From: Gammaproteobacteria bacterium
Lineage (GTDB): Bacteria; Pseudomonadota; Gammaproteobacteria; Eutrophobiales; Eutrophobiaceae
Reading direction: 5' to 3'
Length of the DNA stretch: 34,215 nt
NCBI GenBank assembly: GCA_035471825.1
Contig: DATIPP010000128.1
Location: 1-34,215, forward strand
Shown here: piece after piece, positions 263-30,201 of the stretch
Layout: each line of letters begins with the position of its first letter
Position numbering within the stretch: position 1 is the first letter of the stretch
Position numbers and translations under genes: made by a program
Notes under the pieces: model-generated
Seen by the model: the letters and a program-made list of their open reading frames with translations, nothing else
Databases searched by the model: none
Told to the model about the DNA's origin: nothing

Positions 263-329
263 ATCAATCAGCAACAGACCCGCCAGGGAGTGGAAGGCAG
301 TGTCTGGCTTTTGTTTTTCCTGCTCGGGT

Positions 330-830: not shown

Positions 831-953
831 TTTGTTTATCTCCTTAATCCTTGATTATCTTGGTAAATCGATTCAGCCAACTCCTCGAAAAATTTTACCG
901 ATAAGCTCATCTCAGCTAATCATAATATGATTCTCTAATCAATTGTACAGGTA

Positions 954-2912: not shown

Positions 2913-2920
2913 GCACTTCC

Positions 2921-5683: not shown

Positions 5684-5740
5684 ACCCGGCAGAATTTTGC
5701 GCCATACTTCATTTTCCCGAATGAATTTTCCCCGTAAAGC

Positions 5741-6121: not shown

Positions 6122-6217
6122 TTAGTAAAAAAACCGGTAATATCATCCCGGATTTTTTATCACCTTTTTTATACTGGTGCACCATTTGATCCTGTAACCC
6201 TCTTACCGGGCTGAAAG

Positions 6218-6970: not shown

Positions 6971-6990
6971 TCCATGCTGGCGGAATAATA

Positions 6991-8268: not shown

Positions 8269-8298
8269 TGTTATGTAACCTCGCTGATAATAATAATT

Positions 8299-8868: not shown

Positions 8869-8888
8869 TCTGGTTATTTTGAAATAAA

Positions 8889-10718: not shown

Positions 10719-10777
10719 GTGACAATCAGCCATTGGATGCTATAAGAACACCATCAGTCGGCATCAGGCATCATGAA

Positions 10778-12160
10778 ATGGCGTATTTTGACAAATCACT
10801 GATTGAAAAATACCAGGTCTCCTGCCCCCGGTATACTTCGTACCCGACTGCAAATCATTTTCATGAAAATTTTTCTGAAAATGATTATATAAGAATTGCC
10901 AGGCGTACGAATCAAGATTCGAATCCTTCGCCGTTGTCCCTGTATTTCCATATACCTTTTTGCAGACATATCTGTTTTTATTGTGCCTGCAATAAAATCG
11001 TAACCAATAATCACAAGAAGACGTTTCCTTACCTGTCTGCCATCCACCGTGAAATCGGGTTAAAGGCAAAACTCTTCGAAAAGGACAGGCAGGTAGACCA
11101 ACTGCACTGGGGAGGTGGCACTCCCACATATATTGATCACATACAAATGCGGGAATTAATGAAATGCACGAAAAAGCATTTCCAGTTACGTACTGATGAC
11201 AAAGGCGACTATTCACTGGAGATTGATCCACGTGAAGCAGGGGAAGGTACAATTGCATTGCTGCGCGGTCTCGGTTTCAACCGGTTAAGTCTGGGTGTAC
11301 AGGATTTCAATCCCACTGTCCAGAAAGCAATAAACAGAATACAAACTGTGGAAGAAACACATGACCTGGTCAAAGAAGCTGAAAGCGAAGGGTATCATTC
11401 GATCAACATCGACCTGATTTATGGCCTGCCGAACCAGACGATTGAAAGTTTTAAAGATACCCTGAATATTATAAAGGAAATGGATCCAGACAGGATTGCT
11501 GTCTACAACTATGCACATTTACCTGGATTTTTCAAATCACAACGCATGATCAGGGAAGATGATTTGCCTGGTTTTGAAGAAAAGATGGATATATTGCGTT
11601 TTACAATTAATTATCTGACAAATCACGGTTACATATATATTGGCATGGATCATTTTGCAAAACCAGATGATGAACTTTCAATTGCACAAAACAACAATAC
11701 CCTGCACAGGAACTTCCAGGGTTATTCAACTCATGTTGATTGCGATATTATCGGAATGGGAGTTTCTGCAATCAGCTGCGTGGGTAATTGCTACGCACAA
11801 AATACCTGCAAGCTGGATGATTATGTAAGGAATATCAGTATCGGTAAAATACCGGTTGTCCGTGGTGTTGAACTGAATATGGATGATCTCCTGCGCAGAG
11901 ACGTCATTTCAAAACTGATGTGTCATTATTATGTTAATTATTCGGAGATAAACGCAACCCACGGCATTGAATTCTGTGAATACTTCCAGGTTGAAATAAT
12001 GTCACTGGCGAAGATGGAACGGGACGGTCTTGTAGCTATTGGAGCCGACGAAATTAGAGTTACATCCAGGGGCAGGCTTTTGATCAGGAATATCTGCATG
12101 ATATTCGATAAATATCTTTGCCCTATGAACACTAACGGAAGGTTTTCCAGGGCAATATGA
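10778..12160 (+). CDS. hemN: Oxygen-independent coproporphyrinogen III dehydrogenase (radical SAM)
   Basis: The N-terminus (L..KY....PRYTSYPTA) aligns with the E. coli HemN start when the ATG at 10778 is used. The radical SAM cluster motif is CRHICFYC, followed by the GGGTP motif. The track ORF begins at an upstream TTG (10733). Confidence 0.9.
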   Translation: MAYFDKSLIEKYQVSCPRYTSYPTANHFHENFSENDYIRIARRTNQDSNPSPLSLYFHIPFCRHICFYCACNKIVTNNHKKTFPYLSAIHREIGLKAKLFEKDRQVDQLHWGGGTPTYIDHIQMRELMKCTKKHFQLRTDDKGDYSLEIDPREAGEGTIALLRGLGFNRLSLGVQDFNPTVQKAINRIQTVEETHDLVKEAESEGYHSINIDLIYGLPNQTIESFKDTLNIIKEMDPDRIAVYNYAHLPGFFKSQRMIREDDLPGFEEKMDILRFTINYLTNHGYIYIGMDHFAKPDDELSIAQNNNTLHRNFQGYSTHVDCDIIGMGVSAISCVGNCYAQNTCKLDDYVRNISIGKIPVVRGVELNMDDLLRRDVISKLMCHYYVNYSEINATHGIEFCEYFQVEIMSLAKMERDGLVAIGADEIRVTSRGRLLIRNICMIFDKYLCPMNTNGRFSRAI

Positions 12161-12226
12161 TTTATGGAAACTTTTTATAATCAGCTGGATAAATCATCTG
12201 ATAACCGCATTTTAAATGCGACATAT

Positions 12227-12240
12227 TTGACATAGATCAA
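12227..12240 (+). promoter_or_regulatory. FNR/DNR-type box of the nirS promoter
   Basis: TTGACatagATCAA matches at 9/10. TACACT (12263-12268) lies exactly 22 nt downstream, which is class II geometry. The nirS ATG is at 12302 with the SD gggag. Confidence 0.8.
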
Positions 12241-12277
12241 TGTCATAAACTGCCCGGGTCCATACACTTTTCAATGA

Positions 12278-14047
<1,770 letters not shown>

Positions 14048-14068
14048 TTTATACAATGCATAAGGCAT

Positions 14069-14422
14069 ATGCAGGTGCCAGTCGTTACCGGGGTATCCAA
14101 ACAGGGATTTTTTCCAGGAGCAATAGTTATGCTGGTGCTGGCGTTAATCAGCAGTTTTCCTGCCATGGCAGATATTACATTAATGAGACGGAATGAACTC
14201 CGTCACATGGTTGAACACGATTGCGGCTCCTGCCACGGACTGACCCGTAGAGGTGGCCTGGGACCACCACTTACCGAAAAGGTACTCGAAAACAGATCGC
14301 CTGAAGTTTTATTCAAAATTATACGGAACGGTGTTGAAGGCACCCCCATGCCGCCATGGAAAGGAATTTTAAATGATGAAGAAATCCGCTGGATAGTGAG
14401 CCTGCTTAAAGGCGGCATTTAA
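14069..14422 (+). CDS. nirC: Monohaem cytochrome c55X-like
   Basis: 117 aa with a signal peptide ending AMA/D, the haem site CGSCHG, and a downstream Met ligand (GTPMPPW). It sits between nirS and nirF as in Pseudomonas. The start could be 14069 or 14129. Confidence 0.75.
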   Translation: MQVPVVTGVSKQGFFPGAIVMLVLALISSFPAMADITLMRRNELRHMVEHDCGSCHGLTRRGGLGPPLTEKVLENRSPEVLFKIIRNGVEGTPMPPWKGILNDEEIRWIVSLLKGGI

Positions 14423-14434
14423 AGGGAATTTTGA

Positions 14435-15616
14435 ATGAAAAATATCCCGATCAAGATACTCATTTCCCTTTCCGTGTTTACGGTTGTTTCAGCATATCCC
14501 GTTACTCCAACAACAAATCGTGGAATCATCATAGAACGGGCAACCGGCAGCATTAAACTGGTTGACACTGCCAGACGTATACACCTGGCTGATGTTGATG
14601 GCATGGGTGATCTTTCCCATGCCTCGGCTGTTTTTTCCCGAGATGAACAACACGCATATGTTTTCGGGCGCGATGGCGGCTTGACCAAGATTGATTTACA
14701 TACCTGCAAAATCGAGAAACGTATCAGGCAGGCCGGCAACAGTATTGGTGGCGCCATATCCCGTGACGGCAAGTTCGTTGCCGCATCCAATTATGAGCCT
14801 GGTGGCATCAGGATATTCAAAGCAGATACGCTGGAACCGGTTGTAGATATTCCGGCCGTTTATGGTGATGAAGAAAACCCTGAATATTCAAGAGTAGTCG
14901 GGCTAGTTGACGCACCGGGTCAGCGTTTCATTGCCAGCCTGTATGATGCCGGTGAAATCTGGGTCATTGATCTTGATGATACGTGGCAACCGGAAATACG
15001 AAAATTCACAAATGTTGGCTTGCAACCCTATGATGCATTGATAACTCCTGATGGCCGCTATTACATAGCCGGACTGTATGGTGAAAACGGACTTGCTGTT
15101 CTTGATTTATACTACCTGGACCGCGGGGTCAGACGTGTACTTCAACATTATGGCAGGGATGAAGAGGAATTGCCGGTATACAAGATGCCGCATCTGGAAG
15201 GTTGGGCTGTTGCCGGTAATTATCTGTTTATACCCGCCGTTGGCCATCATGCCATACATGTCATCAATAAGAATAACTGGGAGGAGGTAACGCGTATATC
15301 AACCCATGGCCAGCCGGTTTTTGCAATTGCACGACCCGACGGCAGGCAGGTTTGGGTAAATTTTGCATTTCCTGACAACAACTATGTTGAAATTATCGAT
15401 GTAGAGAAACTTGCCGTTGTAAAGAAACTGGAACCAGGTAAAGCGGTATTACACATGGAATTCACCAAAGAAGGAGATGAAGTATGGATATCAGTTCGGG
15501 ATGAAGATCGTGTAAATATCTATAACACGATGACATTTGACAATATTGGTCTGGTGGAAGCTGACAAGCCTAGCGGTATATTTTTTTCCAGCAGGGCACA
15601 CAAGATCGGTCTGTAG
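14435..15616 (+). CDS. nirF: Haem d1 biosynthesis protein NirF (cd1-like propeller without haem c)
   Basis: 393 aa with a signal peptide and a beta-propeller similar to the NirS/NirN C-terminal domains. It has no CXXCH motif, and its position is conserved. Confidence 0.85.
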   Translation: MKNIPIKILISLSVFTVVSAYPVTPTTNRGIIIERATGSIKLVDTARRIHLADVDGMGDLSHASAVFSRDEQHAYVFGRDGGLTKIDLHTCKIEKRIRQAGNSIGGAISRDGKFVAASNYEPGGIRIFKADTLEPVVDIPAVYGDEENPEYSRVVGLVDAPGQRFIASLYDAGEIWVIDLDDTWQPEIRKFTNVGLQPYDALITPDGRYYIAGLYGENGLAVLDLYYLDRGVRRVLQHYGRDEEELPVYKMPHLEGWAVAGNYLFIPAVGHHAIHVINKNNWEEVTRISTHGQPVFAIARPDGRQVWVNFAFPDNNYVEIIDVEKLAVVKKLEPGKAVLHMEFTKEGDEVWISVRDEDRVNIYNTMTFDNIGLVEADKPSGIFFSSRAHKIGL

Positions 15617-15627
15617 AAACCCTGTAA

Positions 15628-16134
15628 ATGGACAGAAAATCACAGAATAAGTTTCCAGATTCCAAGGCGCAGGATGATGAAGTCATATATCCATACCTGG
15701 AAGAATGCCTGTTAAATAATTACCAGAGAAATTTTCCGCTGGATAAAAGGCCGTTTGATAAAATCGCCAGTGATTTAAGTTGCGATCCGGTTCAATTGCT
15801 GAGTACATTGAAAAAGCTTCAGGAGGAGGGGACAGTCAGCCGTATAGGCCCGGTATTCAGGCCTAACACGATTAACAAAAGTTTGCTTGCTGCTATGAAA
15901 GTTCCTGAAGGCAAGCTTCTTGAAATTGCAGAAATAATCAATGGATATGAAGAGGTGAATCATAATTATGAGAGGGAACATCATTTCAATTTATGGTTTG
16001 TTGTTCATGGACCGGATGAAAATCATATAAATAATGTGCTTGACGAAATAGAGGAACGCACAGGAATAATGTTGATCAGGTTGCCGATTCTGGATGCCTA
16101 TCATATTGACCTGGGGTTTGATTTACGATGCTGA
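15628..16134 (+). CDS. nirD: Sirohaem decarboxylase subunit (AsnC/Lrp-like)
   Basis: 168 aa and the first of four paralogous AsnC-like ORFs, with the motif HNYER.H.FN.WFV. Name assigned by order (D-L-G-H). Confidence 0.8.
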   Translation: MDRKSQNKFPDSKAQDDEVIYPYLEECLLNNYQRNFPLDKRPFDKIASDLSCDPVQLLSTLKKLQEEGTVSRIGPVFRPNTINKSLLAAMKVPEGKLLEIAEIINGYEEVNHNYEREHHFNLWFVVHGPDENHINNVLDEIEERTGIMLIRLPILDAYHIDLGFDLRC

Positions 16135-16664
16135 CGATTATTGATCATTCCAGCGCCAAAATGGCTCCTGAAAAGAGGGTTTTTTCAGACAGTCATCTTA
16201 TTTCATTAATTCAGCTGGGATTGCCATTAACAGAAAGACCTTACCTGGAAATTGCCAGGAAACTTGGTGTCAGTGAACATCAGGTCATAACACGTATCAG
16301 CAATATGATAGAAACGGGATTGATTAAAAGATTAGGAATAATAGTGAGGCACCATGAACTGGGTTACAGGGCCAATGCCATGATCGTATGGAATATTCCT
16401 GATGACAGCGTCCATAAAGTTGCCGATCTCATGAAAGAATATCCGTTTGTAACCCTTTGTTACCGCAGGCCCAGGAGACTGCCGGATTGGCCATATAATC
16501 TGTTTTGCATGATCCATGGCAGGGACAGGGAGGGTGTAATAAGTCTTCTTGAGGATATGATAGCGGTAAATAACTGGCAGGATTATCCATATGATGTTTT
16601 GTTCAGTAAACGCCGGTTCAAACAACGTGGCGCCAGTGTTCGAAAAGTCCGGGTAGTGTTTTGA
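16128..16664 (+). CDS. nirL: Sirohaem decarboxylase subunit
   Basis: 178 aa paralogue with the motifs G.I.R.G..V.H..LGY.AN.M.VW and CY.R.R..P.WPYNLF.M.HG. It overlaps its neighbours. Confidence 0.8.
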   Translation: MLTIIDHSSAKMAPEKRVFSDSHLISLIQLGLPLTERPYLEIARKLGVSEHQVITRISNMIETGLIKRLGIIVRHHELGYRANAMIVWNIPDDSVHKVADLMKEYPFVTLCYRRPRRLPDWPYNLFCMIHGRDREGVISLLEDMIAVNNWQDYPYDVLFSKRRFKQRGASVRKVRVVF

Positions 16665-17110
16665 TCATGAATATCACGGATAAACAGATAATCAATTATC
16701 TTCAGTCCGGCTTTCCGGTTTGTGAACATCCTTTCGCGGTCATTTCTGAAAAGCTCGGTTTGACGGAGTCGGAATTGATAAGCCGTATACAGTTATTGCT
16801 CGACAAAGGTATATTGAGCAGGTTTGGCCCCATGTTTAATGTTGAAAAGATTGGTGGTATGTACAGTCTGGTTGCAATGCAGGTTCCTGTTGCCGATATG
16901 GAGCGAGTAACAGCAATAATCAATCAGCATCCCCAGGTTGCACATAATTATGAACGCGACCACAAATTCAATATATGGTTCGTTGTTGCCCTTGAAGCCG
17001 GTAAAAAATTGTCAACACTGCTGGAAACGATTGAAGATCAAACCGGGTATTTAACCTATAACATGCCCAAACTTGATGAATATTATGTGGGATTGAAATT
17101 CAATGCCTGA
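16661..17110 (+). CDS. nirG: Sirohaem decarboxylase subunit
   Basis: 149 aa NirD-like paralogue with HNYERDHKFNIWFVV. Confidence 0.8.
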   Translation: MIMNITDKQIINYLQSGFPVCEHPFAVISEKLGLTESELISRIQLLLDKGILSRFGPMFNVEKIGGMYSLVAMQVPVADMERVTAIINQHPQVAHNYERDHKFNIWFVVALEAGKKLSTLLETIEDQTGYLTYNMPKLDEYYVGLKFNA

Positions 17111-17588
17111 AATTCTGAAGAATGACGGTATCGACAGGTTGATTATAAAGTCCACGCAGGAAGGTCTGCCGGTTACTGCACGTCCGTACCACGTTATAGC
17201 GGAACGGATCGGAGTTGATGTTTGCACAGTAATGCAGCGGATAAATACAATGCAGGAAGCCGGAATAATTCGCCGAATCGGTGTCGTGCCCAATCATTAC
17301 AAGTTGGGGTACCGTGCAAACGGCATGACAGTCTGGGATATTGTGGATGAACGAATCTCGGAACTGGGACAGGAAGTTGGTGAGCTGGATTTTGTCAGCC
17401 ATTGCTACCGGAGGCCAAGACACCTGCCGGAATGGCCTTACAATCTGTTTGCCATGGTCCACGGGTACAACAGGAATACAACTGAACAATATATCGATTA
17501 TATCAGGGAAATTCTGGGGGATGCGGTCCGGAGTTATGATGTATTGTACAGCACGCGATTGCTCAAAAAATCCGGTTTGAGAATTTAA
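17103..17588 (+). CDS. nirH: Sirohaem decarboxylase subunit
   Basis: 161 aa NirL-like paralogue with HCYRRPRHLPEWPYNLFAMVHG. Confidence 0.8.
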   Translation: MPEILKNDGIDRLIIKSTQEGLPVTARPYHVIAERIGVDVCTVMQRINTMQEAGIIRRIGVVPNHYKLGYRANGMTVWDIVDERISELGQEVGELDFVSHCYRRPRHLPEWPYNLFAMVHGYNRNTTEQYIDYIREILGDAVRSYDVLYSTRLLKKSGLRI

Positions 17589-17622
17589 GTTGATCGTTAA
17601 TTAAAAAAAGAAAACAGGCAAG

Positions 17623-18813
17623 ATGTTCAGAATTTCACAATACATGAAGGAAATAAAAAATCCCCTATCGCCACGGGATGCATCAAGGTCTTCCGGGCCT
17701 GTTGTAATATGGAATTTAATTCGTCGCTGTAATCTTGCCTGCAAGCATTGTTATTCCATTTCGGCAGATCATGATTTTCCTGGAGAATTGTCCCTCGCGG
17801 AAATCCATACAGTCCTGGATGATTTGAAAACTTTTGGTGTCCCGGTACTCATCCTGTCAGGTGGTGAACCGCTTCTGCATCCCCATATTTTCGATATTAC
17901 GAGAAGGGCGAAGAAGATGGGTTTTTATGTCGGCTTGTCTACCAACGGGACAATGATAAGTGAGGACAATATCGGGGAGATCGCCGATATTGATTTTGAC
18001 TATGTCGGAATCAGTATCGACGGTCTGATGGAAACACATGACCATTTCCGGAGGAAGGCGGGTGCATTCGATGCATCAATAAAAGCGGTTCATTTGTGCA
18101 GGAATAACGGCATAAAGGTGGGGTTGAGGTTTACAATGACCCTGGATAATTACAATGAATTACCCGATCTTCTTGCCCTTATGGACACGGAGGACGTTAA
18201 TAAATTTTATTTGTCACATCTGAATTATGCAGGGCGCGGTAACCGTAATCGCAAGGACGATGTTACCCATATAATCACAAGAAAATCACTTGATATATTA
18301 TTCGAAAAATGCTGGCAGGATATAAATGAAGGAAGAAATCGTGAATATGTATCGGGTAACAATGACGCGGATGGCGTTTATTTCCTGCACTGGGTAAGAA
18401 AATACTTTCCCGAGAGGGAGGATTATTTCCGGGAGAGGCTGGAGCAATGGGGTGGTAACAGTTCAGGAGTGAATATTGCAAACATTGATAATCTGGGGAA
18501 TGTTCACCCGGATACTTTCTGGTGGCACTATAACCTGGGTAATGTGAAGGATCGTCCATTCTCTGAAATATGGAAGGATACCAGCGATCCGATTATGGCC
18601 GGTCTGAAACGCAGACCAAGAAAAATAGGCGGTCGATGCGGGAAGTGTTGCTTTTTTAATATCTGCGGAGGAAATACAAGGATCAGGGCATTACAGATGA
18701 CCGGAGATCCATGGGCGGAAGATCCGGCCTGTTATCTTACAGATAGTGAAATTGGCATAGATGACAGTAAAATCAGCTATGCCGCTCGCGGTGTTAATGC
18801 AGCAATTGTTTAG
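17623..18813 (+). CDS. nirJ: Radical SAM haem d1 biosynthesis enzyme
   Basis: 396 aa with the radical SAM motif CNLACKHC and GGEPLL. A C-terminal auxiliary Cys cluster (CGKCCFFNICGG) indicates a SPASM-type domain. Confidence 0.9.
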   Translation: MFRISQYMKEIKNPLSPRDASRSSGPVVIWNLIRRCNLACKHCYSISADHDFPGELSLAEIHTVLDDLKTFGVPVLILSGGEPLLHPHIFDITRRAKKMGFYVGLSTNGTMISEDNIGEIADIDFDYVGISIDGLMETHDHFRRKAGAFDASIKAVHLCRNNGIKVGLRFTMTLDNYNELPDLLALMDTEDVNKFYLSHLNYAGRGNRNRKDDVTHIITRKSLDILFEKCWQDINEGRNREYVSGNNDADGVYFLHWVRKYFPEREDYFRERLEQWGGNSSGVNIANIDNLGNVHPDTFWWHYNLGNVKDRPFSEIWKDTSDPIMAGLKRRPRKIGGRCGKCCFFNICGGNTRIRALQMTGDPWAEDPACYLTDSEIGIDDSKISYAARGVNAAIV

Positions 18814-20368
18814 AAATATATCACCCCTGGTCCTTTTTCTGATCCTGACAGCAGTTAGCAGGATTTGTCTTGCCGAACCGAAAACACAGGCAGACAGTTT
18901 GTATCAACAGCACTGCGCTGCCTGTCATGGTAGGGATCGCCTTGGCGGAACAGGGCCTGCATTATTGCCGGAGAATCTCGCCCGCCTGAAAAAAGCAGCG
19001 GCCCATGATTCCATCAGTAATGGACTGGCTGCGACACAGATGCCGGCTTTCCAGGATCAGCTCAATGATAAACAAATCGGATTGCTGGTTGACTATATTT
19101 ATACACCACTGACCAATGCGCCAGCCTGGTATATAGAGGAAATAGAAAACACACATATTGTCAAATACTGGGACGATTTATCCAGTGATAAACCGCTGTT
19201 TGATGCCGATCCGTTGAACCTGTTTATTGTTGTTGAGAAAGGTGACCACCATGTATCAATACTGGACGGGGATCGACTCGAACCAATACACAGGTTCAAG
19301 ACACGACGGGCATTACATGGTGGTCCGAAGTATTCACCTGACGGACGGTATGTTTATTTTGCTTCCAGAGACGGGTGGGTATCAAAGTATGATCTGTATA
19401 ACCTGAAATATATTGCTGAAATCAGGGTCGGTATAAATACCCGCAATATTGCTGTTTCGAATGATGGCAAATATGTACTTGCCGGTAATTATCTCCCGCA
19501 TACACTTGTAATCCTTGATGCAGGGAAACTGTCACCGATAAAAGTCATTCCGGTTGAAGACGAATCAGGCAAAAGCTCGCGTGTCAGTGCAGTTTATGAT
19601 GCTCCCCCGAGAGGGAGTTTTATCATTGCATTGAAGGATATTCCCGAAATATGGGAAATTTATTATGATGAAAATCAGGAACCTCTCTATACCGGCATGG
19701 TGCATGATTACCGTTACCAGGAAGGAATAGCAACAGATACACCGTTTCCGGTCCGTCGTATACGTCTTGATGATTACCTGGACGATTTCTTCTTTGATGC
19801 AGGATACAACAATCTTGTCGGAGCGGCACGAAACGCGAAAAACGGCCAGGTTGTCAGTCTGATCGTCGGCAGAAAGATTGCCGAGCTTGAACTTTCGGGA
19901 CTGCCTCATCTCGGTTCAGGTATTACCTGGGAATACCAGGGTAAAACAATACTGGCAACTCCAAATATCAAGAAGGGCCTGATAAGCATCATCGATCAAT
20001 CAAACTGGAAAGTCATCAAGGAGATTAAAACATTGGGACCGGGATTTTTCATGCGTTCGCATGAAAATTCACCTTATGGATGGGTTGATGTATTTTTTGG
20101 CCCGGATAAGGATGCTGTTCATGTTATTGATAAAGCCACGCTGGAAATAGTTGCGACACTAAGGCCCGCACCGGGAAAGACATCGGGTCATGTTGAATTC
20201 ACAAGGGATGGAAAATATGCCTTGCTGAGCATCTGGGAGAATGATGGTGCACTCGTTGTTTATGATTCCAGTACCCTGGACGAGGTGAAAAGGATTTCCA
20301 TGAACAAGCCTTCCGGTAAATATAACGTCTATAACAAGATCCATGGATCAAGTGGCACCAGTCACTGA
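18761..20368 (+). CDS. nirN: Dihydro-haem d1 dehydrogenase, cd1-like cytochrome
   Basis: It has a signal peptide, the haem c site CAACHG and a cd1-type propeller, and it is the last gene of the cluster. The start is ambiguous between ATG at 18761, 18779 and 18800, all of which overlap the nirJ 3' end. Confidence 0.85.
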   Translation: MTVKSAMPLAVLMQQLFRNISPLVLFLILTAVSRICLAEPKTQADSLYQQHCAACHGRDRLGGTGPALLPENLARLKKAAAHDSISNGLAATQMPAFQDQLNDKQIGLLVDYIYTPLTNAPAWYIEEIENTHIVKYWDDLSSDKPLFDADPLNLFIVVEKGDHHVSILDGDRLEPIHRFKTRRALHGGPKYSPDGRYVYFASRDGWVSKYDLYNLKYIAEIRVGINTRNIAVSNDGKYVLAGNYLPHTLVILDAGKLSPIKVIPVEDESGKSSRVSAVYDAPPRGSFIIALKDIPEIWEIYYDENQEPLYTGMVHDYRYQEGIATDTPFPVRRIRLDDYLDDFFFDAGYNNLVGAARNAKNGQVVSLIVGRKIAELELSGLPHLGSGITWEYQGKTILATPNIKKGLISIIDQSNWKVIKEIKTLGPGFFMRSHENSPYGWVDVFFGPDKDAVHVIDKATLEIVATLRPAPGKTSGHVEFTRDGKYALLSIWENDGALVVYDSSTLDEVKRISMNKPSGKYNVYNKIHGSSGTSH

Positions 20369-20457: not shown

Positions 20458-20763
20458 CTACAGGCTGCTGAAATATGCTGCCAGATCGTTGATATCTTCA
20501 TCCGTGAGATTTGCCGCCATGGGCGACATCATTGGGTCAGATCGTGACCCTTCCCGAAAGGCCTTGAGTTGCTTGACGAGATAACCGAATTTCTGGCCCG
20601 CCAGGTTCGGCCACAAGTCATTCGGGCTGATCCCGTCCGCCCCGTGGCAGGCTGCGCAGTTTGACGATTTTTCCTTGCCGGCTGCCGCATCTCCCTCCGC
20701 AAACGCCATGGACAGGAATCCCGATAAAATGACTGTTAATAATATTTTATGCATATTTTTCAT
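20458..20763 (-). CDS. Periplasmic class I monohaem cytochrome c
   Basis: 101 aa with a signal peptide ending AFA/E, the haem site CAACHG and the Met-ligand region MMSPM. It is the last gene of the oxidase-like operon. Confidence 0.8.
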   Translation of the reverse strand: MKNMHKILLTVILSGFLSMAFAEGDAAAGKEKSSNCAACHGADGISPNDLWPNLAGQKFGYLVKQLKAFREGSRSDPMMSPMAANLTDEDINDLAAYFSSL

Positions 20764-20835: not shown

Positions 20836-21231
20836 CTACATATCCAGATATCTGTGTAATCTCGCATCCTTGGTGCTGAAATGATCGGTAAACCAGTGGT
20901 TAAGTTCATCGACAAATTTGTCAGTATCAATCTCCATCATATCACTGTAATGTTCCATGATATCCCGTATTTCATCAAGCAATTTATCATGATCAGCCTT
21001 GTGATCTGCCAGTTGATCATAATTCTTTTCCCGCATTATCTTTTCTTCCAGCGCAAAATGTAGTGCGATGCGCGCATATATTTCGCCAAGGTAATCTGAT
21101 GTATTATCTTCCCTGTCTGTTTCATATATTTTGACAAGCATTTCGTTAATCAATTGAATCAATTTACGATGTTCATAATCAATTTCCGGAATTCCGAGTG
21201 AAAACTCGTCTTTCCATTCCAATAGTTGCAT
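20836..21231 (-). CDS. Bacteriohemerythrin
   Basis: 131 aa with the W.DEFS.GI.EID.EH..L opening. All seven di-iron ligand positions are present: H (EHRKL), H and E (LHFALEE), H-x3-H (DHKADH), and H-x4-D (DHFSTKD). Confidence 0.85.
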   Translation of the reverse strand: MQLLEWKDEFSLGIPEIDYEHRKLIQLINEMLVKIYETDREDNTSDYLGEIYARIALHFALEEKIMREKNYDQLADHKADHDKLLDEIRDIMEHYSDMMEIDTDKFVDELNHWFTDHFSTKDARLHRYLDM

Positions 21232-21267: not shown

Positions 21268-21771
21268 TTATAAAAATACAAACCCCCCGGCTTCCTTGTT
21301 AAAATCTATTACGAAATTTTGTCCGGGTTTCAACTCGATATCAGTTGAACGCTCATGGTCAAATCCTTCATTTTCACGACTATCGCGCATTCGCGTAACC
21401 AATTTGTGTTTTCCGGGTGTTACCCTGAAGTACTCATATACAGTCGAGGCACCATCATGAGACAGTCCTGAAGCAGGAACCTGCTCTTTGTACAGGATAT
21501 TTCCATCCAGTATTATTTCAACGAGTATTGGAACCCGTTCTCGACTGCATTCGAGAGGTCTTCGCATATTCGGTGCCATTGCTTCAAGCTCCTCCTGTGT
21601 CAATCGCCGGCATTCTTCCTTTTTTTCACCGGCATGACTGAAACTTATTTTGAGTAATGCCATCCCGGGATCAAGATGTTCGTATTCAGGTCTGGATGAG
21701 AAATACCCGACAATCACTGCAAAAACAAGATAGGTAGTTATCTGAATAACAATGTTTCTTGGTGTGTACAT
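21268..21771 (-). CDS. Membrane-anchored protein of unknown function
   Basis: 167 aa with one N-terminal TM helix (IVIQITTYLVFAVIVGYF) followed by a soluble domain carrying two Cys. I recognise no family. It is packed tightly within the operon. Confidence 0.55.
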   Translation of the reverse strand: MYTPRNIVIQITTYLVFAVIVGYFSSRPEYEHLDPGMALLKISFSHAGEKKEECRRLTQEELEAMAPNMRRPLECSRERVPILVEIILDGNILYKEQVPASGLSHDGASTVYEYFRVTPGKHKLVTRMRDSRENEGFDHERSTDIELKPGQNFVIDFNKEAGGFVFL

Positions 21772-21792: not shown

Positions 21793-23325
21793 TCAGTTAT
21801 TAAATCCTGTGACTTCGTTGTTCAGTGAAGCCAGTTTTTCCTTAAAACGTATGATTTTCTGTATCAGCTTTTTTCTATTGACAGATCCGGTCCAGTACTG
21901 ACTGATTCTTTCCCGGGAGACACGTTCTCGGAGGAATGGATCACGCTCCCCGGTAATACGCTGTTTTGTCCAGTTAATACCGAATCGGTTATAACAGTTG
22001 CCTACCTTGCAACCGGTCAGAAATACACCATCAGCAATATTTTGACTGAGAATAAAATCAATAAATGAGGGTGGCAACATCCCGACACATGGAAGTGAAA
22101 CGGTCGTTGTATTGTTAATGTTGATGTTGCATGCAACTGGCCCATGATCACAACTGAAAATAAAAACCCTGTCCCTGCCCTGCATTATTTCCGCGGTATC
22201 AATTACATATTGCCTGAGCTGATTGATAGAGAAATCGGGTAATTCAATTCCCGGGACCAGTTTACTTTTCCGCCTGAAAGGCATTGCCGTAGGACATGCC
22301 CCGGCACATATTCCGCAACTGACACATAAATCAGGATTGACCACGGCCTGGCTGGTATAGGGCAGTTCGTCGGTGCGTGCCTGCAGACTTACGGCATTGT
22401 AGGGACAGTCAGAAACACAGCGTCCGCAACCATTGCAATTGTCCAGATCAATCTTTGCAATTGATAATGATTTTTTTCTGGTGATCCAGGGCATGCACAA
22501 TAAAATTGATACTAGCAGAAAGATTGCAATCCACAAGTAGAGCCCCGGAAATTCATCCAGTAACGGATAAAAAAACATGTAATACCAGTCCAGCCCGACA
22601 GTTGTTACTGCCTTGTCCAGTTCTGCTGGTCCCTGGCTGGTAGCAGGATAAAAAAGCGACAAGGCCAGTAACATGAGCAAGATACCGGTTGCCAGGTACC
22701 TGGGCAGCATGACTTTTGGCATGGTTATGCGCTGAATATGCATCCACATGAATAACAGCAGGATCAGGGGGGCCGCAATATGAATAAATACGAACAATGT
22801 AAAAAAGCGGCCACTCAGTGTTGTGTCATGTAGAAAATTTCTTGCAATGGATTCGCCAAATAAGGGAAGAGTGTCAAGCCATTCTGATGTGGAAATTGCG
22901 ATATACTGGGCCAGCTTGTCCCACACAATCCAGTAACCTGTTATTCCACTTGCATATATGAATAACAGGCTCATTACACCAATGATCCATGTAAATGCCC
23001 GGGGGCCATGAAATCGATCCAGTGAATACTCACGAAGCATATGAAGAAAAATGACGATTACCAGGGCATCTGATGCATATCGGTGAAAGCTTCGCATTAC
23101 ACCACCGGCATACCACTGGGTATTAGTCAGATATTCGATGGATTCATAGGCTTCTGTTACACCTGTATCAAAAAAGATATATAGATATATACCACTGGCA
23201 ACAACTATCCAGTAAAAAAACCATCCCATTGTCCCCAGAAAAAGCATTGGATTGCAGGCAGGGGTAAAACCGGCACTAAAAATATCATCCGTTTTTTCAA
23301 ATAATTGTCGCAGGTATTTTTTCAT
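21793..23325 (-). CDS. Fusion protein: dihaem cytochrome b (bc-type) + 2x[4Fe-4S] ferredoxin + MvhD/FlpD-like domain
   Basis: There are two His-x13-His pairs on TM helices (FHRYASDALVIVIFLH and IHIAAPLILLLFMWMH) and a PEWY-like loop (LDWYYMFFYPLL). These are followed by CNGCGRCVSDCP and CVSCGICAGACP. The MvhD-like tail reads FSCDHG...CVGMLPPSFIDFIL..ADGVFLTGCKVGNCYNRFGN. I prefer the ATG at 23325; the track ORF to 23412 starts at GTG and overlaps senC. Confidence 0.8.
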   Translation of the reverse strand: MKKYLRQLFEKTDDIFSAGFTPACNPMLFLGTMGWFFYWIVVASGIYLYIFFDTGVTEAYESIEYLTNTQWYAGGVMRSFHRYASDALVIVIFLHMLREYSLDRFHGPRAFTWIIGVMSLLFIYASGITGYWIVWDKLAQYIAISTSEWLDTLPLFGESIARNFLHDTTLSGRFFTLFVFIHIAAPLILLLFMWMHIQRITMPKVMLPRYLATGILLMLLALSLFYPATSQGPAELDKAVTTVGLDWYYMFFYPLLDEFPGLYLWIAIFLLVSILLCMPWITRKKSLSIAKIDLDNCNGCGRCVSDCPYNAVSLQARTDELPYTSQAVVNPDLCVSCGICAGACPTAMPFRRKSKLVPGIELPDFSINQLRQYVIDTAEIMQGRDRVFIFSCDHGPVACNININNTTTVSLPCVGMLPPSFIDFILSQNIADGVFLTGCKVGNCYNRFGINWTKQRITGERDPFLRERVSRERISQYWTGSVNRKKLIQKIIRFKEKLASLNNEVTGFNN

Positions 23326-23359
23326 CTTGGTAAAGGAAGGAATTATGCCGGCCTGGAAT

Positions 23360-24250
23360 TTATGAAGTACTGTTCGTGCGCCAGAGATGAAAAAGGAAAA
23401 CAAGCAGGCCACCCAGCGAAATTAATCCGGTCAAAAAAGCAATGACTATTGAATAATCAAAGGTATATCTTCCAGTTGAAGGATCGTAAATCGTACAGAA
23501 TAACCTGATGTTATTTACCCATTCGGATATATTTGATGGTAAAAAACTGCCATCCCCAAACACTAGTTCTTTTAATGGTTCAATCAGTACGGGAGGAGAG
23601 AATGTTGCCCCGTAAATCTGCCTGTAAACACGACCATGGCTGTCAATAATTGTGGTTTGAGCCAGGTGATCAAAACCTTTTGCAGAAGGAAAAAATATAA
23701 ATCCCAGATCACTGGCAAGATTCTCTATTGTTTCAGTGTCTGCGCTCAGAAAGTGCCAGTTTCTATCATTGATACCTCTTTCAGATGCAAATAATTTCAT
23801 TCGTTCTGGCGTGTCGACGCCAGTATCAAATCCTATTGTTATAATGGTGAAACTGTTATCTCCAAGTGTCTCTTGTGCGATTTGAACGGTTTTGTGAAGA
23901 TTCGTGGTTAAAACAGGACAGGTATGGTGGCAGCTTGTATATATAAAACTGACAATAGCGGGTTTGTCAGTATAATATTTGGCAATATTTACCGTACCAC
24001 CATTTTGATCGGTCAACCTGTAATCACCAATAGCGCTGCCTACTACAGACTGACTGTAAACCAGAGCCTTTTCGTTACTGAAACCTGTGGTACTGGTCAG
24101 ATTTTCCTGGGGTGAGTTATTGTTCCCTGTTACGGTGGATGGTAAGAAAACTGTAAGGTATATCAAATATCCGGCAAAATGGCCGACAGAAATAAATGAT
24201 TCTAAGCCTATAATCCCTTTGTAATAATTACCTTTTGAAATAAACCGCAT
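23360..24250 (-). CDS. senC: SCO1/SenC-family copper chaperone with an extra C-terminal membrane segment
   Basis: 296 aa with an N-terminal TM helix, a thioredoxin-fold CxxxCP motif (SCHHTCP) and the conserved distal His (DHLAQTTIIDSHG). The C-terminus has FCTIYDPSTGRY followed by a TM helix. Confidence 0.8.
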   Translation of the reverse strand: MRFISKGNYYKGIIGLESFISVGHFAGYLIYLTVFLPSTVTGNNNSPQENLTSTTGFSNEKALVYSQSVVGSAIGDYRLTDQNGGTVNIAKYYTDKPAIVSFIYTSCHHTCPVLTTNLHKTVQIAQETLGDNSFTIITIGFDTGVDTPERMKLFASERGINDRNWHFLSADTETIENLASDLGFIFFPSAKGFDHLAQTTIIDSHGRVYRQIYGATFSPPVLIEPLKELVFGDGSFLPSNISEWVNNIRLFCTIYDPSTGRYTFDYSIVIAFLTGLISLGGLLVFLFHLWRTNSTS

Positions 24251-24275: not shown

Positions 24276-25958
24276 CTATCTGAGCGGCCAGACTTCTGCA
24301 AGATATTTCCAGTTTACGAAGTAATAAAGCACAAAAGTTGTAAAGAAAACGGCCACAAGGACTACTGTCCCGGGTATAGCCAGTGTGCCGGCGCTTCCAT
24401 ATTTTCCAACAACTGATGATGCTGGCTTGCCTTTCATGATACTTTGGTCAACTTTTTTACCAAAAAGTATTGAGCCAACTACTATCAAGATGTAGAGAAT
24501 CCCGCCCAGCGCTGCCAGAATGGCACTGATCCCGTTTAATCCCATCATGAGAAATGCTGCCCCGGGATAGTCGAATTTCAATGCAGCATCTGTAAAGGTA
24601 ATATCCCAGTGTCTCCTGGCCACACCGAGCGTTCCTGCGCCCATCATGAATAACGAAATACCGGCAGCGCCAATGCCAAAAAGATAAGGCTGTAACCTTG
24701 CCAGTTTTGGCCAGATAAGTTCACGCTGGAAGATAAGGGGAATCAGCAGGTAAGTAATGGCCATGAATGCCAGCGTTGTTCCGGCTACTACTGTACCGTG
24801 AAAATGGCCCGGAACATATAATGTATTATGCATGATAATGTTAAGTTGTTCGGTACCCAGAATTACGCCCGTGATTCCACCTATAAATCCGAACATTATT
24901 AACGACAGAAACATGCCTGAAAATGCCGGATTACCCCACGGTGCTTTTTTGAGCCATTCAAAAATACCGTTGGTATATCCCTTTGCTCTTTGTGCCACTT
25001 CAATTGAGCCTGGAACCGTCATACCGTGAATCATGCTTCCGAGTACAGCAAGATACATAGCATAACTTGTATTGAATATTTTCCATTCAGAACTTATTCC
25101 GGGCTCAACCAGTAAATGATGAGCGCTTGCAAGCTGCAGGAAAAGAATGTACATCAGAAAAGCCAGTCTGCTCACCTTCTCTGAAATAGGCTTGGCGCCA
25201 AGCACAATAGCAGCTATGGCGTACCAGACAGCAACGTGCGCGGAAACATTTATTTGCTGTGACGAATGCCCCATTGCCCACCAGACTGCCTTGTACATCA
25301 ATGGATCAATATTACTGACTAAATCCATAGACCACAAAAATGTAGGAATCAATATAATTGCTCCGGAGGCAATGGTAAATACAGCGATAATTGCTGCGGT
25401 AAGGGCACCAAATGTGACAAGTGGAATTGAACCTTCATAGGTCTTTTCTTCCTTGGCAATAACGAGAGTACCAAAGAAAACACAACAGCCTAGCAGGGCC
25501 CCGACTGCAAAAAGGACGATACCGAGATAAAAATGCGGATCTGCCTGCATGGGGACATAGGACGTGAACATAACACTGGATTTACCTTGTAAAACCGCGA
25601 TATTTGTTATCACAGCACCAATCAGCATCATCCAGAAGCCCGTCCAGCCAACCCTGGGGGCAGCGATCCTCGAGTTCAGCAGAATGGCGGAAGCAAAATA
25701 AAGTATGGCCATCTCGAAAAAAATAATCCATACCAGCAATACATCAAGCCCGTGTGCCGTTAATGCCAGGTAGAACCAGTCCGCCGGCAGCAAGTGTACT
25801 GCAGGCCAGCGTGTTAGTGCGACTGACAGTCCGAACAGACCACCAATAGCTAGGAATACGACAGCAGCGACAGCATTCGCCTTGATCAGTTTTTCCGCTG
25901 GCAGGTGTATCTGCAGGCCTGTTGTCGGGCAGGTTCGAAACTGGGTATCTGAGGCCAT
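24276..25958 (-). CDS. Haem-copper oxidoreductase subunit I, ba3-like (B-family) but lacking the cross-linked Tyr; candidate NO reductase (sNOR/NorS-like)
   Basis: 560 aa with about 13 TM helices and the SD ggag. All six canonical His are present (LTAHG, AMGHSS, SAHH, PGHFHG). The protein is collinear with Thermus ba3 CbaA motifs (DPL..WW.GH, RLAFL, PW.NPAF, HNT..VPGHFH). Helix VI reads GHSSQQ instead of GHPIVY. Confidence 0.85.
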   Translation of the reverse strand: MASDTQFRTCPTTGLQIHLPAEKLIKANAVAAVVFLAIGGLFGLSVALTRWPAVHLLPADWFYLALTAHGLDVLLVWIIFFEMAILYFASAILLNSRIAAPRVGWTGFWMMLIGAVITNIAVLQGKSSVMFTSYVPMQADPHFYLGIVLFAVGALLGCCVFFGTLVIAKEEKTYEGSIPLVTFGALTAAIIAVFTIASGAIILIPTFLWSMDLVSNIDPLMYKAVWWAMGHSSQQINVSAHVAVWYAIAAIVLGAKPISEKVSRLAFLMYILFLQLASAHHLLVEPGISSEWKIFNTSYAMYLAVLGSMIHGMTVPGSIEVAQRAKGYTNGIFEWLKKAPWGNPAFSGMFLSLIMFGFIGGITGVILGTEQLNIIMHNTLYVPGHFHGTVVAGTTLAFMAITYLLIPLIFQRELIWPKLARLQPYLFGIGAAGISLFMMGAGTLGVARRHWDITFTDAALKFDYPGAAFLMMGLNGISAILAALGGILYILIVVGSILFGKKVDQSIMKGKPASSVVGKYGSAGTLAIPGTVVLVAVFFTTFVLYYFVNWKYLAEVWPLR

Positions 25959-25974: not shown

Positions 25975-26508
25975 TTATTCGGTAACATATATTTTTCCGA
26001 TCATGGTATGGTGACCGATACCACAAAATTCATTGCAAATAATGCTGTATTCTCCGGCCTGGTCCGGAGTGACTGTAATTACCATTTCATAACCCGGATG
26101 TATTTGCAGATTGATGTTGGTTGGTTGAAGTGAAAATCCATGTTGCCAGTCCAGCGAGGAAATATGCAGGCGGTAACTCTGGTCTTTTTCAAATTCCAGT
26201 ATAGGCCACCACTGCCAAAGACGACCTATTAGATATACATCGCTGCCCGGTGGTGGGTGCACAACAGGAAAATTTGATTCTTCCCGCACCTTGTATTTAT
26301 CAACCATTTCGGTTGTTTTTGCGGAAAACGTCTCCGGCGTAATACGGTATGCTTCGTTGGAAAGGTTCTGTTCGCCGGCGCCATGCCAGTAAATCATCAT
26401 GAAAAACATGAAGAGACCCCACATGAATCCAACGATAATCCATATCAGTTCAGTTCTGGCAACGGGCTCGTTCCACCATATCCGTTCTTCAGGAGGTGTG
26501 ATGGCCAT
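25975..26508 (-). CDS. Haem-copper oxidoreductase subunit II with an intact CuA site
   Basis: 177 aa with one TM helix and a cupredoxin domain. The CuA ligand pattern is H(GF)...CNEFCGIGHHTM (H, C-x-E-x-C-G-x2-H-x2-M). It is collinear with ba3 CbaB, and the SD is aggag. Confidence 0.9.
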   Translation of the reverse strand: MAITPPEERIWWNEPVARTELIWIIVGFMWGLFMFFMMIYWHGAGEQNLSNEAYRITPETFSAKTTEMVDKYKVREESNFPVVHPPPGSDVYLIGRLWQWWPILEFEKDQSYRLHISSLDWQHGFSLQPTNINLQIHPGYEMVITVTPDQAGEYSIICNEFCGIGHHTMIGKIYVTE

Positions 26509-26815: not shown

Positions 26816-27004
26816 TTATTGAATTTCAATAATATATCTTATGAGGGCGAAACTCGAAACTGCCAGGAAAGAAAGGATGAAAAAGAAAATCAGGCTGCGA
26901 TATTCAAAACGTCGGCCGGCAATCAATTCCAGGCGCTCCAATAGCCGGTCTGAGACTGTATAGAGAATAATTGCCGCGATTGTGTAGGATAGAATTTCCA
27001 ACAT
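26816..27004 (-). CDS. Possible 62-aa two-TM membrane protein
   Basis: The ORF has two hydrophobic segments. I recognise no family, and it lies upstream of the FNR box, so it would be a separate transcript. Confidence 0.3.
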   Translation of the reverse strand: MLEILSYTIAAIILYTVSDRLLERLELIAGRRFEYRSLIFFFILSFLAVSSFALIRYIIEIQ

Positions 27005-27075
27005 TGGAAGTACCTTTTAATAATTTATTGCAGGAATATCCGATCCCCGTTTTATATTGTCTGGATTATTTGTCA

Positions 27076-27447
27076 ATGCATATTATCAAGTACCTTCATG
27101 TAATATGTGCAATTCTTACGATAATTTCTTTTTCCATCCGGGGAATCTGGATGGTGCAAGGCTCTTCATTACTTACCAGGAAAGTAACACGCATATTGCC
27201 ACATTTTATCGATGCCATTTTGCTCTTCAGTGGTATTGTTTTACTGATACAGTATTACAGGCAGTTTTACTATTTTGACTGGTTAATGATAAAGCTTGTT
27301 GTAATTATCCTGTACATTTTTTCCGGAGCAATCGCACTGAGGCGCGGACGTACGCGGGCCATAAGGGTAACGGCACTCTTTATATCCTGGGGATTTCTGG
27401 CAATAATCGTAACGCTTGCAATATCACGACCGGCATCAATATTCTGA
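27076..27447 (+). CDS. SirB2-family inner membrane protein
   Basis: 123 aa from the ATG at 27076 (MHIIKYLHV...), with four TM helices and a K.LH......S...R pattern like SirB/YchQ proteins. The track ORF starts earlier at 26971. Confidence 0.6.
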   Translation: MHIIKYLHVICAILTIISFSIRGIWMVQGSSLLTRKVTRILPHFIDAILLFSGIVLLIQYYRQFYYFDWLMIKLVVIILYIFSGAIALRRGRTRAIRVTALFISWGFLAIIVTLAISRPASIF

Positions 27448-27840: not shown

Positions 27841-28539
27841 ATGAAATTGTTTGGCGAAAACAAAAGGGACATACCGGGGTTGACTGACAATCCTGTTTTT
27901 TCAGCACTTCGGGAAGACCAGCTTGACAGTGTCATATCGACGGCGGAACAAAAGGATCTGGCAGCAGGTAACATACTTTTTGAGCAGGGCGAGGCAGCCT
28001 CAAGGTTCTACATGGTAAAAAAAGGACAAATACGGCTGTTTCGCCTGTCCGACGATGGGGACGAAAAAGTCATAGATATCGTTCACCCGGGCCAGATTTT
28101 TGCCGAGGCGGTCATGTTTATGGAAAACAGGCGTTATCCCGTAAACGCCATGGCAATAACTGAAAGCCAGGTGATTGCTTTTGATATGGAAACCTTCAGA
28201 AATGTATTGAGGGAATCAGTCGATACCTGTTTCCGCATGATGGCCAAAATGAGCAAACGGCTGCATATCCAGTTGAACGAGATTGACAGCCTCAGCCTGC
28301 ATAATGCGACATACCGCCTGGTTCACTATTTGCTCAAGTCGATACCTGCCAATACATCCAGGCATACCGAGATAACCCTGAATTATCCGAAAAATATACT
28401 GGCATCCCGTCTTTCGATTAAGCCCGAGACGTTTTCAAGGATCATATCGCGTCTCAAGAAGGAAAATATCATAGAGGTAAGCGGAAACCAGATTATTATC
28501 AGTGATATATCGGCATTACGGGAAATTGCTGGTGAATGA
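27841..28539 (+). CDS. dnr: Crp/Fnr-family regulator, Dnr type
   Basis: 232 aa with no N-terminal Cys cluster. It is strongly collinear with P. aeruginosa Dnr as I recall it (FAEA.MFM, IDE/SLSL.NAT.R.V.YLL, LSI.PETFSRI..RL). The recognition helix has the E--SR motif that reads TTGAT half-sites. Confidence 0.85.
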   Translation: MKLFGENKRDIPGLTDNPVFSALREDQLDSVISTAEQKDLAAGNILFEQGEAASRFYMVKKGQIRLFRLSDDGDEKVIDIVHPGQIFAEAVMFMENRRYPVNAMAITESQVIAFDMETFRNVLRESVDTCFRMMAKMSKRLHIQLNEIDSLSLHNATYRLVHYLLKSIPANTSRHTEITLNYPKNILASRLSIKPETFSRIISRLKKENIIEVSGNQIIISDISALREIAGE

Positions 28540-29432: not shown

Positions 29433-29438
29433 GTGATA

Positions 29439-29535
29439 CTAGAAGCTGTCTCAAAATTACATCCTCAGCTCCGTAAACGTTGCATTCATGCCCGCTCCTC
29501 ACGAACCACGTTGCGGAATTTGAGACAGGTTCTAG
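29439..29535. mobile_element. MITE-like element, copy B (97 bp)
   Basis: CTAGAAGCTGTCTCAAAATTAC (29439-29460) and ggaatttgagacaggttctag (29515-29535) form inverted repeats. The termini belong to the same family as copy A, with consensus CTAGAACCTRTCTMAAAATTCC. Confidence 0.55.
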
Positions 29536-30200: not shown

Positions 30201-30201
30201 A

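Follow-up and report, generated by a model that had tools for sequence, protein, structure and literature searches.

eNOR is a haem-copper nitric oxide (NO) reductase and is reported to be a common, environmentally widespread source of N2O (PMC11214002). The enzyme of R. marinus has been purified as an NO reductase with haem As and was slow with artificial donors (0.68 NO per second), and the main text of that paper mentions no cytochrome b or Fe-S partner (PMC11214002). For Ferrigenium straubiae, a 2026 preprint reports that the eNOR operon includes two 'rather unusual' genes of the type cytochrome b-[Fe-S](-FAD-NADH), whose products were present in the proteome under denitrifying conditions, and proposes a quinol:NAD+ oxidoreductase (10.64898/2026.01.22.701106). 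In addition, a single protein that combines cytochrome b6, DMSOR-beta-like and FlpD domains stands uncommented in an appendix table (PMC8756737). Here, we analysed a stretch of 34,215 nucleotides (the window) from contig DATIPP010000128.1 of a gammaproteobacterium (assembly GCA_035471825.1), in which a gene on the minus strand (21793..23325) encodes a 510-amino-acid fusion of a cytochrome b, a 2x[4Fe-4S] ferredoxin and an MvhD-like domain, as recognised from Pfam, homologue alignment and the deposited annotation.

The natural electron supply and the assembly of eNOR have not been described, and a five-cofactor protein that nearly all sampled loci contain suggests itself as a candidate for a part in them. 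Our preferred reading, which we hold tentatively, is that the fusion protein is a conserved accessory redox component of eNOR operons that exports electrons for the maturation or maintenance of the enzyme. Its parts are all of known kinds, while their combination and role are new to characterisation; in a limited literature search, no description was found of the family-wide link to eNOR, of the MvhD module, of the fusions with SenC and with the 167-amino-acid partner, or of the swapping of modules.

Domain Architecture and Cofactor Ligands

The open reading frame (ORF) 21793..23412 (minus strand) was confirmed in the window; its maximal form opens at GTG 23412, so that 53 nt would be shared with the upstream SenC gene. 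Because ATG 23325 is the first codon both in the deposited annotation (HSR62713.1, 510 amino acids, labelled only '4Fe-4S binding protein') and in the homologue alignment, it is most likely the true start and the gene most likely spans 21793..23325. The single ORF at 21793-23412 on which an earlier sequence-only reading of this DNA was built therefore exists, with a start placed about 29 codons too far upstream. Residue numbers throughout are those of the 510-amino-acid protein. In the alignment of close homologues (A1; 19 homologues, 53-77% identity), all cofactor ligands, i.e., four haem His and twelve Cys, are invariant.

Residues 1-288 (22462..23325) form a cytochrome b6-type domain with six transmembrane helices, as seen from Pfam, from matches to solved structures and from the alignment. 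Pfam Cytochrome_B (PF00033) scores 73.1 bits (cut-off 27.2); among solved structures, chains of cytochrome b6 match over residues 12-201 (E 1e-21), and mitochondrial cytochromes b align as far as residue ~290. The haem ligands are H81/H95 and H182/H196, each a His-x13-His pair, on helices B and D; invariant in the 19 homologues, they are also at least 90% conserved among 150 cluster representatives of the wider family. On the P-side, the stretch LDWYY...YPLLD (residues 245-257) aligns with PEWYFLFAYAIL of mitochondrial cytochrome b, where L245-D246-W247-Y248-Y249 falls on PEWY with Leu in place of Pro, and L245, D246, W247 and Y249 are invariant in the 19 homologues. The loop segment alone scores only E~0.2, which is not significant, yet every match is a cytochrome b at the correct position. 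The A-B and C-D loops are b6-like when compared with cytochrome b6. The Cys of haem ci is not present, since the position of b6 Cys35 is occupied by Phe in the alignment with solved b6, and a conserved Qi-type His is not found among the 19 homologues, where the position five residues after H196, which we take from bovine numbering to be its equivalent, is variable.

The dicluster ferredoxin domain (residues 289-352; 22270..22461; Pfam/NCBIfam and alignment) has two CxxCxxCxxxCP motifs, C297/300/303/307-P308 and C334/337/340/344-P345, invariant in the same homologues, and several Fer4 families, including Fer4 and Fer4_7, exceed their Pfam cut-offs. Since only ~15 residues separate helix F from the first Fe-S cluster, the ferredoxin must sit close to the haem on the cytoplasmic side. 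The MvhD/FlpD-like domain (residues 353-510; 21793..22269) was assigned by Pfam FlpD (PF02662; 42.7 bits against a cut-off of 22.3), by the alignment, and by solved MvhD 5odc_D, which was matched both by sequence (E 3.5e-5, three Cys aligned) and by fold (Foldseek; TM 0.70, probability 1.00). Its C392, C413, C439 and C444 are invariant in the 19 homologues and are predicted to carry a [2Fe-2S] cluster. An AlphaFold model of the whole protein was built from 19 sequences, and only its MvhD part gave a meaningful fold match.

Six long helices were found, with positive charge at the N-terminus, in the B-C loop, in the D-E loop and after helix F, and from this helix count and charge distribution both termini are predicted to lie inside and the Fe-S domains in the cytoplasm. 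With all ligands conserved, the protein would thus hold five cofactors in a chain across the membrane, namely a [2Fe-2S] cluster, a pair of [4Fe-4S] clusters and two b haems. Each of these points (a bc-type dihaem cytochrome b, two ferredoxin motifs, an MvhD/FlpD domain, six transmembrane helices and cytoplasmic Fe-S domains) had been claimed from the sequence alone, and each is borne out by the scores, the invariant ligands and the charges given above.

No c-type haem motif was found outside the ferredoxin motifs in the family members scanned, and a Pfam scan of the fusion protein found no output or DNA-binding domain. Homology to NosR, NapH or CcoG was not detected; the only match of this kind, between the ferredoxin motifs and the NapH/MauN family, is sub-threshold, with 26.4 bits where the cut-off is 213.

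Family, Gene Neighbourhood and Enzyme Type

A word-indexed search found thousands of relatives of the fusion protein, and each of the best 120 has the three modules over its full length; the three-module fusion is far beyond chance. An exhaustive profile search of 50%-identity cluster representatives gave 665 clusters at E<=1e-30, and a scan of one genome per species gave at least 596 matches, the best 80 of which (Gamma- and Alphaproteobacterial metagenome-assembled genomes, MAGs) served as the genome sample. The second sample consisted of 80 metagenome loci from a clade only ~30% identical to the window protein, which makes 160 loci in both samples together.

Where the contig reaches, the order common to the 160 loci is CuA subunit II, eNOR subunit I, (UbiA/haem O synthase), SenC, cytochrome b protein and 167-amino-acid protein. 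In the window, the minus strand carries CuA subunit II, subunit I, SenC/SCO1, the fusion protein, the 167-amino-acid protein, a bacteriohaemerythrin and a small cytochrome c, with intergenic gaps of 16-72 nt. For co-transcription we go by these short gaps only; a promoter scan of the operon gave matches at chance level and the terminator-like sites were weak. The haem O synthase gene (UbiA/CtaB-like) lies between subunit I and SenC in ~50 of L001-L080 (e.g., L005 8035-8898), and the window operon is without it.

The genome loci, each read on a single strand, contain SenC in 80/80, the 167-amino-acid protein in 78/80 and haemerythrin in 75/80, with a haem-copper oxidase (HCO) gene in 72/80 and the CuA subunit in 67/80, where the gaps coincide with contig ends; a small cytochrome c is present in only 8/80. 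In the metagenome loci, SenC stands directly upstream in 45/53 and an HCO with GH..QQ is found upstream in 31/35. Haemerythrin is present in only 6/59 of these distant loci, which retain ferredoxin-MvhD, and its conservation downstream is confined to the close proteobacterial clade; it was therefore demoted as a general partner of the MvhD domain. Both samples consequently support the placement of the gene within a Tyr-less haem-copper operon, as the sequence-only reading had it, and show, far beyond what one sequence could reveal, that the gene is conserved together with this operon, but the constant partners of this context, SenC/Sco upstream and the 167-amino-acid beta-sandwich protein downstream, had been missed.

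The absence of a Rieske protein and cytochrome c1 nearby, also part of that reading, holds as well: neither a Rieske protein nor cytochrome c1/f is encoded among the scanned window ORFs, and a regex scan found the Rieske cluster motif in no ORF of the 160 related loci. Likewise, the scanned window ORFs include no hydrogenase, HdrA-type flavoprotein or HdrBC, and no hydrogenase or HdrA-type flavoprotein is conserved in the neighbourhoods examined.

The neighbouring subunit I (24276..25958, minus strand; Pfam and ligand alignment) is nearest to Thermus ba3 (E 1e-44), and it has GHSSQQ against GHPIVY of ba3, i.e., Gln for the cross-linked Tyr, with the HH and HxH ligands (CuB/FeB, haem His) kept. 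The same motif is found in 61/62 neighbouring HCOs, beside the 31/35 of the distant loci. Because Gln at the cross-linked-Tyr position is diagnostic for eNOR (PMC8756737), whereas sNOR has Asn there (PMC3475470; PMC8756737 Table A4), we assign the enzyme by its ligand pattern to eNOR and not to sNOR. The earlier description of a NOR-like enzyme was thus right about the Tyr-less haem-copper type and can be made specific, while the deposited label of this subunit (24276-25958), cbb3-type oxidase, is probably a misannotation. Subunit II (25975..26508, minus strand) was recognised from its CuA motif (H...CNEFCGIGHHTM) and from weak COX2 and CoxB matches.

The sNOR cluster of ammonia oxidisers (norSY-senC-orf1) was considered as the identity of the operon and ruled out, the residue being Gln and not Asn. 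Its fourth gene also differs by description: the Bacillus counterpart of orf1 is cbaD, a protein of ~190 amino acids with six transmembrane helices, and nitrifiers are reported with the same cluster organisation (PMC3475470). As a separate observation, a second COX1-like gene of ~460-500 amino acids often lies alongside (L081 4020-5516, L083 10824-12254, L167 9359-10732), with further such ORFs upstream of subunit II in many of L087-L166; it is absent from the window, and where inspected (L081, L083) it has GGGH(V/I)LQ(Y/F) and is without the HH metal-ligand pair.

Predicted Periplasmic Partners and Gene Fusions

The SenC/SCO1 copper chaperone (23360..24250, minus strand; Pfam, helix prediction, synteny) has a CHHTCP motif and a transmembrane helix at each end. 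The 167-amino-acid partner (21268..21771, minus strand) was defined by its model, synteny and fusions; its model is confident (predicted local distance difference test, pLDDT, of 91.5) and consists of one N-terminal transmembrane helix and a beta-sandwich. Nothing in Pfam or NCBIfam matched it, and a fold search with the model gave no significant PDB neighbour.

Architectures were sorted with purpose-built hidden Markov models among the 150 best cluster representatives. The window-like three-module form accounts for 43/150, and in 68/150 the 167-amino-acid module follows at the C-terminus, giving a single chain of cytochrome b, ferredoxin, MvhD and 167-amino-acid module; two of the 150 consist of cytochrome b and the 167-amino-acid module only, and in one (P0220, a SenC-cytochrome b-ferredoxin chain) a SenC domain is fused to the N-terminus of cytochrome b. 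The beta-sandwich would face the periplasm, since in the fused chains its transmembrane helix comes after the cytoplasmic MvhD domain, and the helices at both ends of SenC fit an N-terminal fusion to a cytochrome b whose own N-terminus is cytoplasmic. As the fusions fit the two helices of SenC and the single helix of the 167-amino-acid protein, both partner domains should lie on the periplasmic side, probably as two domains flanking the transmembrane haem pair. These fusions also argue for a single physical unit made up of SenC, the cytochrome b protein and the beta-sandwich.

In the window, the C-terminal ~60 residues of SenC (23360-24250) form an extension, 'LFCTIYDPSTGRYTFDYS', after the thioredoxin-like domain, followed by the second transmembrane helix, and the extension is near-identical in L005. 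To our knowledge, such an extension is not a feature of ordinary Sco proteins.

Exchange of the Cytoplasmic Module

Sister proteins carry other cytoplasmic modules on the same kind of cytochrome b. In P0162, flavodoxin, FAD and NAD(P) domains replace ferredoxin-MvhD; P0180 and the 657-amino-acid proteins of L167 and L168 have Fer2, FAD and NAD domains; and in L169 and L170 the cytochrome b is without any cytoplasmic module. The loci of these variants keep SenC upstream and a 167-amino-acid-type protein downstream or fused. From this replacement within a constant context it follows that the periplasmic side is fixed and the cytoplasmic side can be swapped: the constant core is SenC, cytochrome b and beta-sandwich, and the cytoplasmic redox module is exchangeable.

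PCuAC, CtaG and SCO1 are copper-insertion factors, and in L081 the diflavin variant (P0162) sits after the genes for these three and before NnrS. In L083, a NuoF-like gene (6724-8019; Complex1_51K, SLBB and NADH_4Fe-4S domains) lies between two four-module cytochrome b genes, and in this lineage its product is a candidate donor to the MvhD domain on the cytoplasmic side.

Other Genes in the Window

The bacteriohaemerythrin (20836..21231; Pfam/NCBIfam and synteny), which is without a signal sequence, and a small monohaem cytochrome c (20458..20763; Pfam and synteny), the final gene of the strand, complete the minus-strand operon. A Crp/Fnr-family regulator recognised by domain scan (27841..28539, plus strand) adjoins the operon, as does a gene for a SirB-family membrane protein (26971-27447, plus strand); another SirB-family gene lies near NnrS in L081 (12341-12727).

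A domain scan also found a convergent and complete nirS (cytochrome cd1 nitrite reductase) cluster (10733..20368, plus strand), with genes for a HemN-like radical SAM protein, NirS, a small cytochrome c, a NirF-like protein, four NirD/L/G/H-like proteins, a NirJ-like radical SAM protein and a NirN-like protein. The nir and eNOR region is a compact island producing and consuming NO, i.e., a denitrification context. The G+C content is ~0.51-0.56 in window positions 1-9000, where housekeeping genes (pcnB, folK, panBCD) lie, against ~0.40-0.48 across the nir/eNOR region (the lower stretch compared being 9500-31000), and it climbs again near the window end. An island acquired horizontally, or a MAG contig that is chimeric, could explain this step. 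Unrelated to the fusion protein, a homologue of the large chain of ribonucleotide reductase lies at 28581-32352 (minus strand), together with a TSCPD-domain protein and a weak radical-SAM-like ORF.

Discussion

If the fusion protein exports electrons, it would work as a unit with SenC/Sco and the beta-sandwich protein. A cytoplasmic donor would feed electrons into the Fe-S chain, from which they would pass to bH, the haem near the cytoplasmic side, and on to bL, the haem near the periplasmic side, to leave at the conserved Qo-like pocket or at the surface of the periplasmic face, where they would keep the copper of Sco and the CuA and active-site metals (copper or FeB) of eNOR reduced. We favour this direction because the NAD(P)H modules of the sister proteins make outward flow the energetically easy one, which in the NAD(P)H-flavin variants would be downhill and aided by the membrane potential. 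We favour maturation or maintenance of the eNOR metals as the purpose because the linkage to Sco is steady and, locally, PCuAC and CtaG are linked too.

Several points weigh against such an export. The P-side loops resemble those of cytochrome b6, so that a real quinol site may survive, and the module-less forms (L169, L170) would have to use quinone or quinol. A five-cofactor protein of 510-720 amino acids is heavy equipment for an assembly factor. The 167-amino-acid domain is without a clear metal-binding signature (M69 and H122 ~85% conserved, Cys pair 59%), and no cytoplasmic flavoprotein that could serve as donor of the ferredoxin-MvhD form is conserved in the 80-locus metagenome sample. 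Finally, the membrane part of the AlphaFold model is poor (pLDDT 63 overall).

It seems rather unlikely, though it deserves attention, that the protein is instead the physiological donor of eNOR, i.e., a Rieske-less 'complex III substitute' that draws on quinol and/or a cytoplasmic donor and reduces CuA of subunit II at the periplasmic face, possibly in a supercomplex, with SenC and the beta-sandwich as docking or relay elements. Such a role would fit the strict co-conservation with the structural genes in both locus samples and the lack of a conserved cytochrome c in the operon (8/80 loci), and the module-less forms of cytochrome b and 167-amino-acid module would need quinol as electron source. 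The slow turnover of the R. marinus eNOR (0.68 NO per second) is compatible with a missing natural partner (PMC11214002), and the cytochrome b proteins and eNOR occur together in the F. straubiae proteome (10.64898/2026.01.22.701106). However, it is the copper chaperone and not subunit II to which the linkage is tightest, given the gene fusion and the PCuAC and CtaG genes nearby. The use of NAD(P)H or ferredoxin for NO respiration would also come at a high cost to the lithoautotrophs that carry these operons, and we know of no bc-type complex in which haem bL donates to a periplasmic copper protein.

Electrons could also run inwards, in line with the link from the quinone pool to a cytoplasmic Fe-S path that the sequence-only reading proposed, a possibility that we judge less favourably still and consider unlikely: quinol would be oxidised at the Qo-like site with protons released outside, and electrons would cross the membrane through bL and then bH and reach an acceptor in the cytoplasm by way of the Fe-S chain, as in a redox loop of the NarI/NarH kind. 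The acceptor could be the co-encoded haemerythrin, re-reduced after binding O2 or NO, or NAD+ in the flavin variants. The conserved Qo-like loop with its invariant Asp, the b6-like A-B and C-D loops and the haemerythrin that follows the operon in 75/80 close loci would suit this path, and a quinol:NAD+ oxidoreductase driven by NO reduction is proposed in the preprint (10.64898/2026.01.22.701106). Yet haemerythrin is present in only 6/59 of the distant loci that keep ferredoxin-MvhD, and transfer from quinol to NAD+ would be uphill in redox potential and, with the predicted topology, against the membrane potential. Bifurcation, moreover, needs a Rieske-like high-potential acceptor, whose motif is in no ORF of the 160 loci, and the Qi-site His and haem ci Cys of bc/b6f are absent. 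Very improbable, in our opinion, is a protein that transfers no electrons to eNOR and serves as a redox or NO sensor, with Fe-S clusters as NO targets, or as a scaffold merely travelling with the operon. Fe-S clusters are classic NO sensors, and a Crp/Fnr regulator is found nearby, as is NnrS in other loci. Against this, the protein is without an output or DNA-binding domain, four haem ligands and twelve Cys are invariant along a membrane-spanning chain, and the exchange of the Fe-S part for NAD(P)H-flavin reductase modules points to catalysis.

Returning to the export of electrons, a broader proposal can be formulated, which we regard as somewhat doubtful in its full extent: on the scaffold of cytochrome b6, the family may represent a class of transmembrane reductases of bacteria that had gone unrecognised, with interchangeable inputs (ferredoxin-MvhD, Fer2-FNR, diflavin, none) and a fixed periplasmic output (Sco and the new beta-sandwich), exporting electrons to mature, repair or directly power eNOR. 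If true, a copper- and iron-containing NO reductase would have a system akin to NOX/FRE at its service, and a missing piece of the supply of eNOR in vivo would be in place. In any case, the protein is a rare case of a bc/b6-type cytochrome b without Rieske protein that is hard-wired to cytoplasmic Fe-S or flavin modules, which bears on the reuse of Qo-type sites and transmembrane haem pairs. The triad of SenC, cytochrome b and 167-amino-acid protein can also serve as an annotation handle, as it marks eNOR operons that are currently mislabelled, such as that of the window with its subunit I.

Comparison with Known Systems

The F. straubiae genes are, by their description, of the same kind and in the same type of operon, and L167 and L168 (Fer2-FAD-NAD) show the same layout; the preprint presents them as an unusual feature of one genus, and its available passages do not include the MvhD domain, the fusion with the 167-amino-acid protein, the tie to SenC or the family-wide distribution (10.64898/2026.01.22.701106). 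With cytochrome b6/b of the b6f and bc1 complexes, the window protein shares the fold family, the four x13-spaced His on helices B and D, helices E and F, and LDWYY as a possible equivalent of PEWY. Unlike in those complexes, its operon is without Rieske and cytochrome c1/f, the Qi His and haem ci Cys are absent, and its chain leaves the membrane after helix F and runs on into the Fe-S domains of the cytoplasmic side.

Among the heterodisulfide reductase systems of methanogens, MvhD and the C-terminal ferredoxin-MvhD part of HdrA2 are alike to the window protein in the FlpD match, the fold of 5odc_D (TM 0.70) and the aligned Cys ligands; NCBIfam also aligns residues 318-532 with the C-terminus of HdrA2, although far below the model cut-off (66 bits against 1100). 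Unlike these systems, the window gene has no hydrogenase, HdrA flavoprotein or HdrBC nearby, and its domain is anchored to the membrane through a cytochrome, in Proteobacteria that are aerobic or denitrifying. In NarI-NarH, HdrE-HdrD, DsrMK and QmoC, too, a membrane anchor with two b haems is connected to Fe-S clusters in the cytoplasm, and QmoB carries an MvhD-like domain as well. Their cytochromes b, however, belong to the NarI/HdrE family and not to the bc/b6 type, and their catalytic partner subunits are absent at the window locus.

The Fe-S flavoprotein NosR supports the nitrous oxide reductase NosZ, and the cupric reductase CcoG supports assembly of the cbb3 oxidase; each is a membrane protein that holds two [4Fe-4S] clusters on the cytoplasmic side. 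An FMN domain of NosR lies in the periplasm, while CcoG acts on the cytoplasmic side. By analogy, the window protein resembles them as a membrane protein with cytoplasmic Fe-S clusters that would support a copper enzyme of a nitrogen or O2 respiratory chain; their membrane parts are unrelated and without haem b, so the resemblance is functional only. With NosR/NosZ and CcoG/cbb3 in mind, the premise of the sequence-only reading that CuA enzymes need no cytoplasmic Fe-S link is not safe. Lastly, although the NOX/FRE ferric-cupric reductases and MsrQ-Fre have the ferric reductase fold as opposed to cytochrome b6, and the window protein itself uses Fe-S and not flavin, the sister variants are alike to them, by analogy, in their cytoplasmic NAD(P)H-flavin input, their two b haems and an acceptor on the outside.

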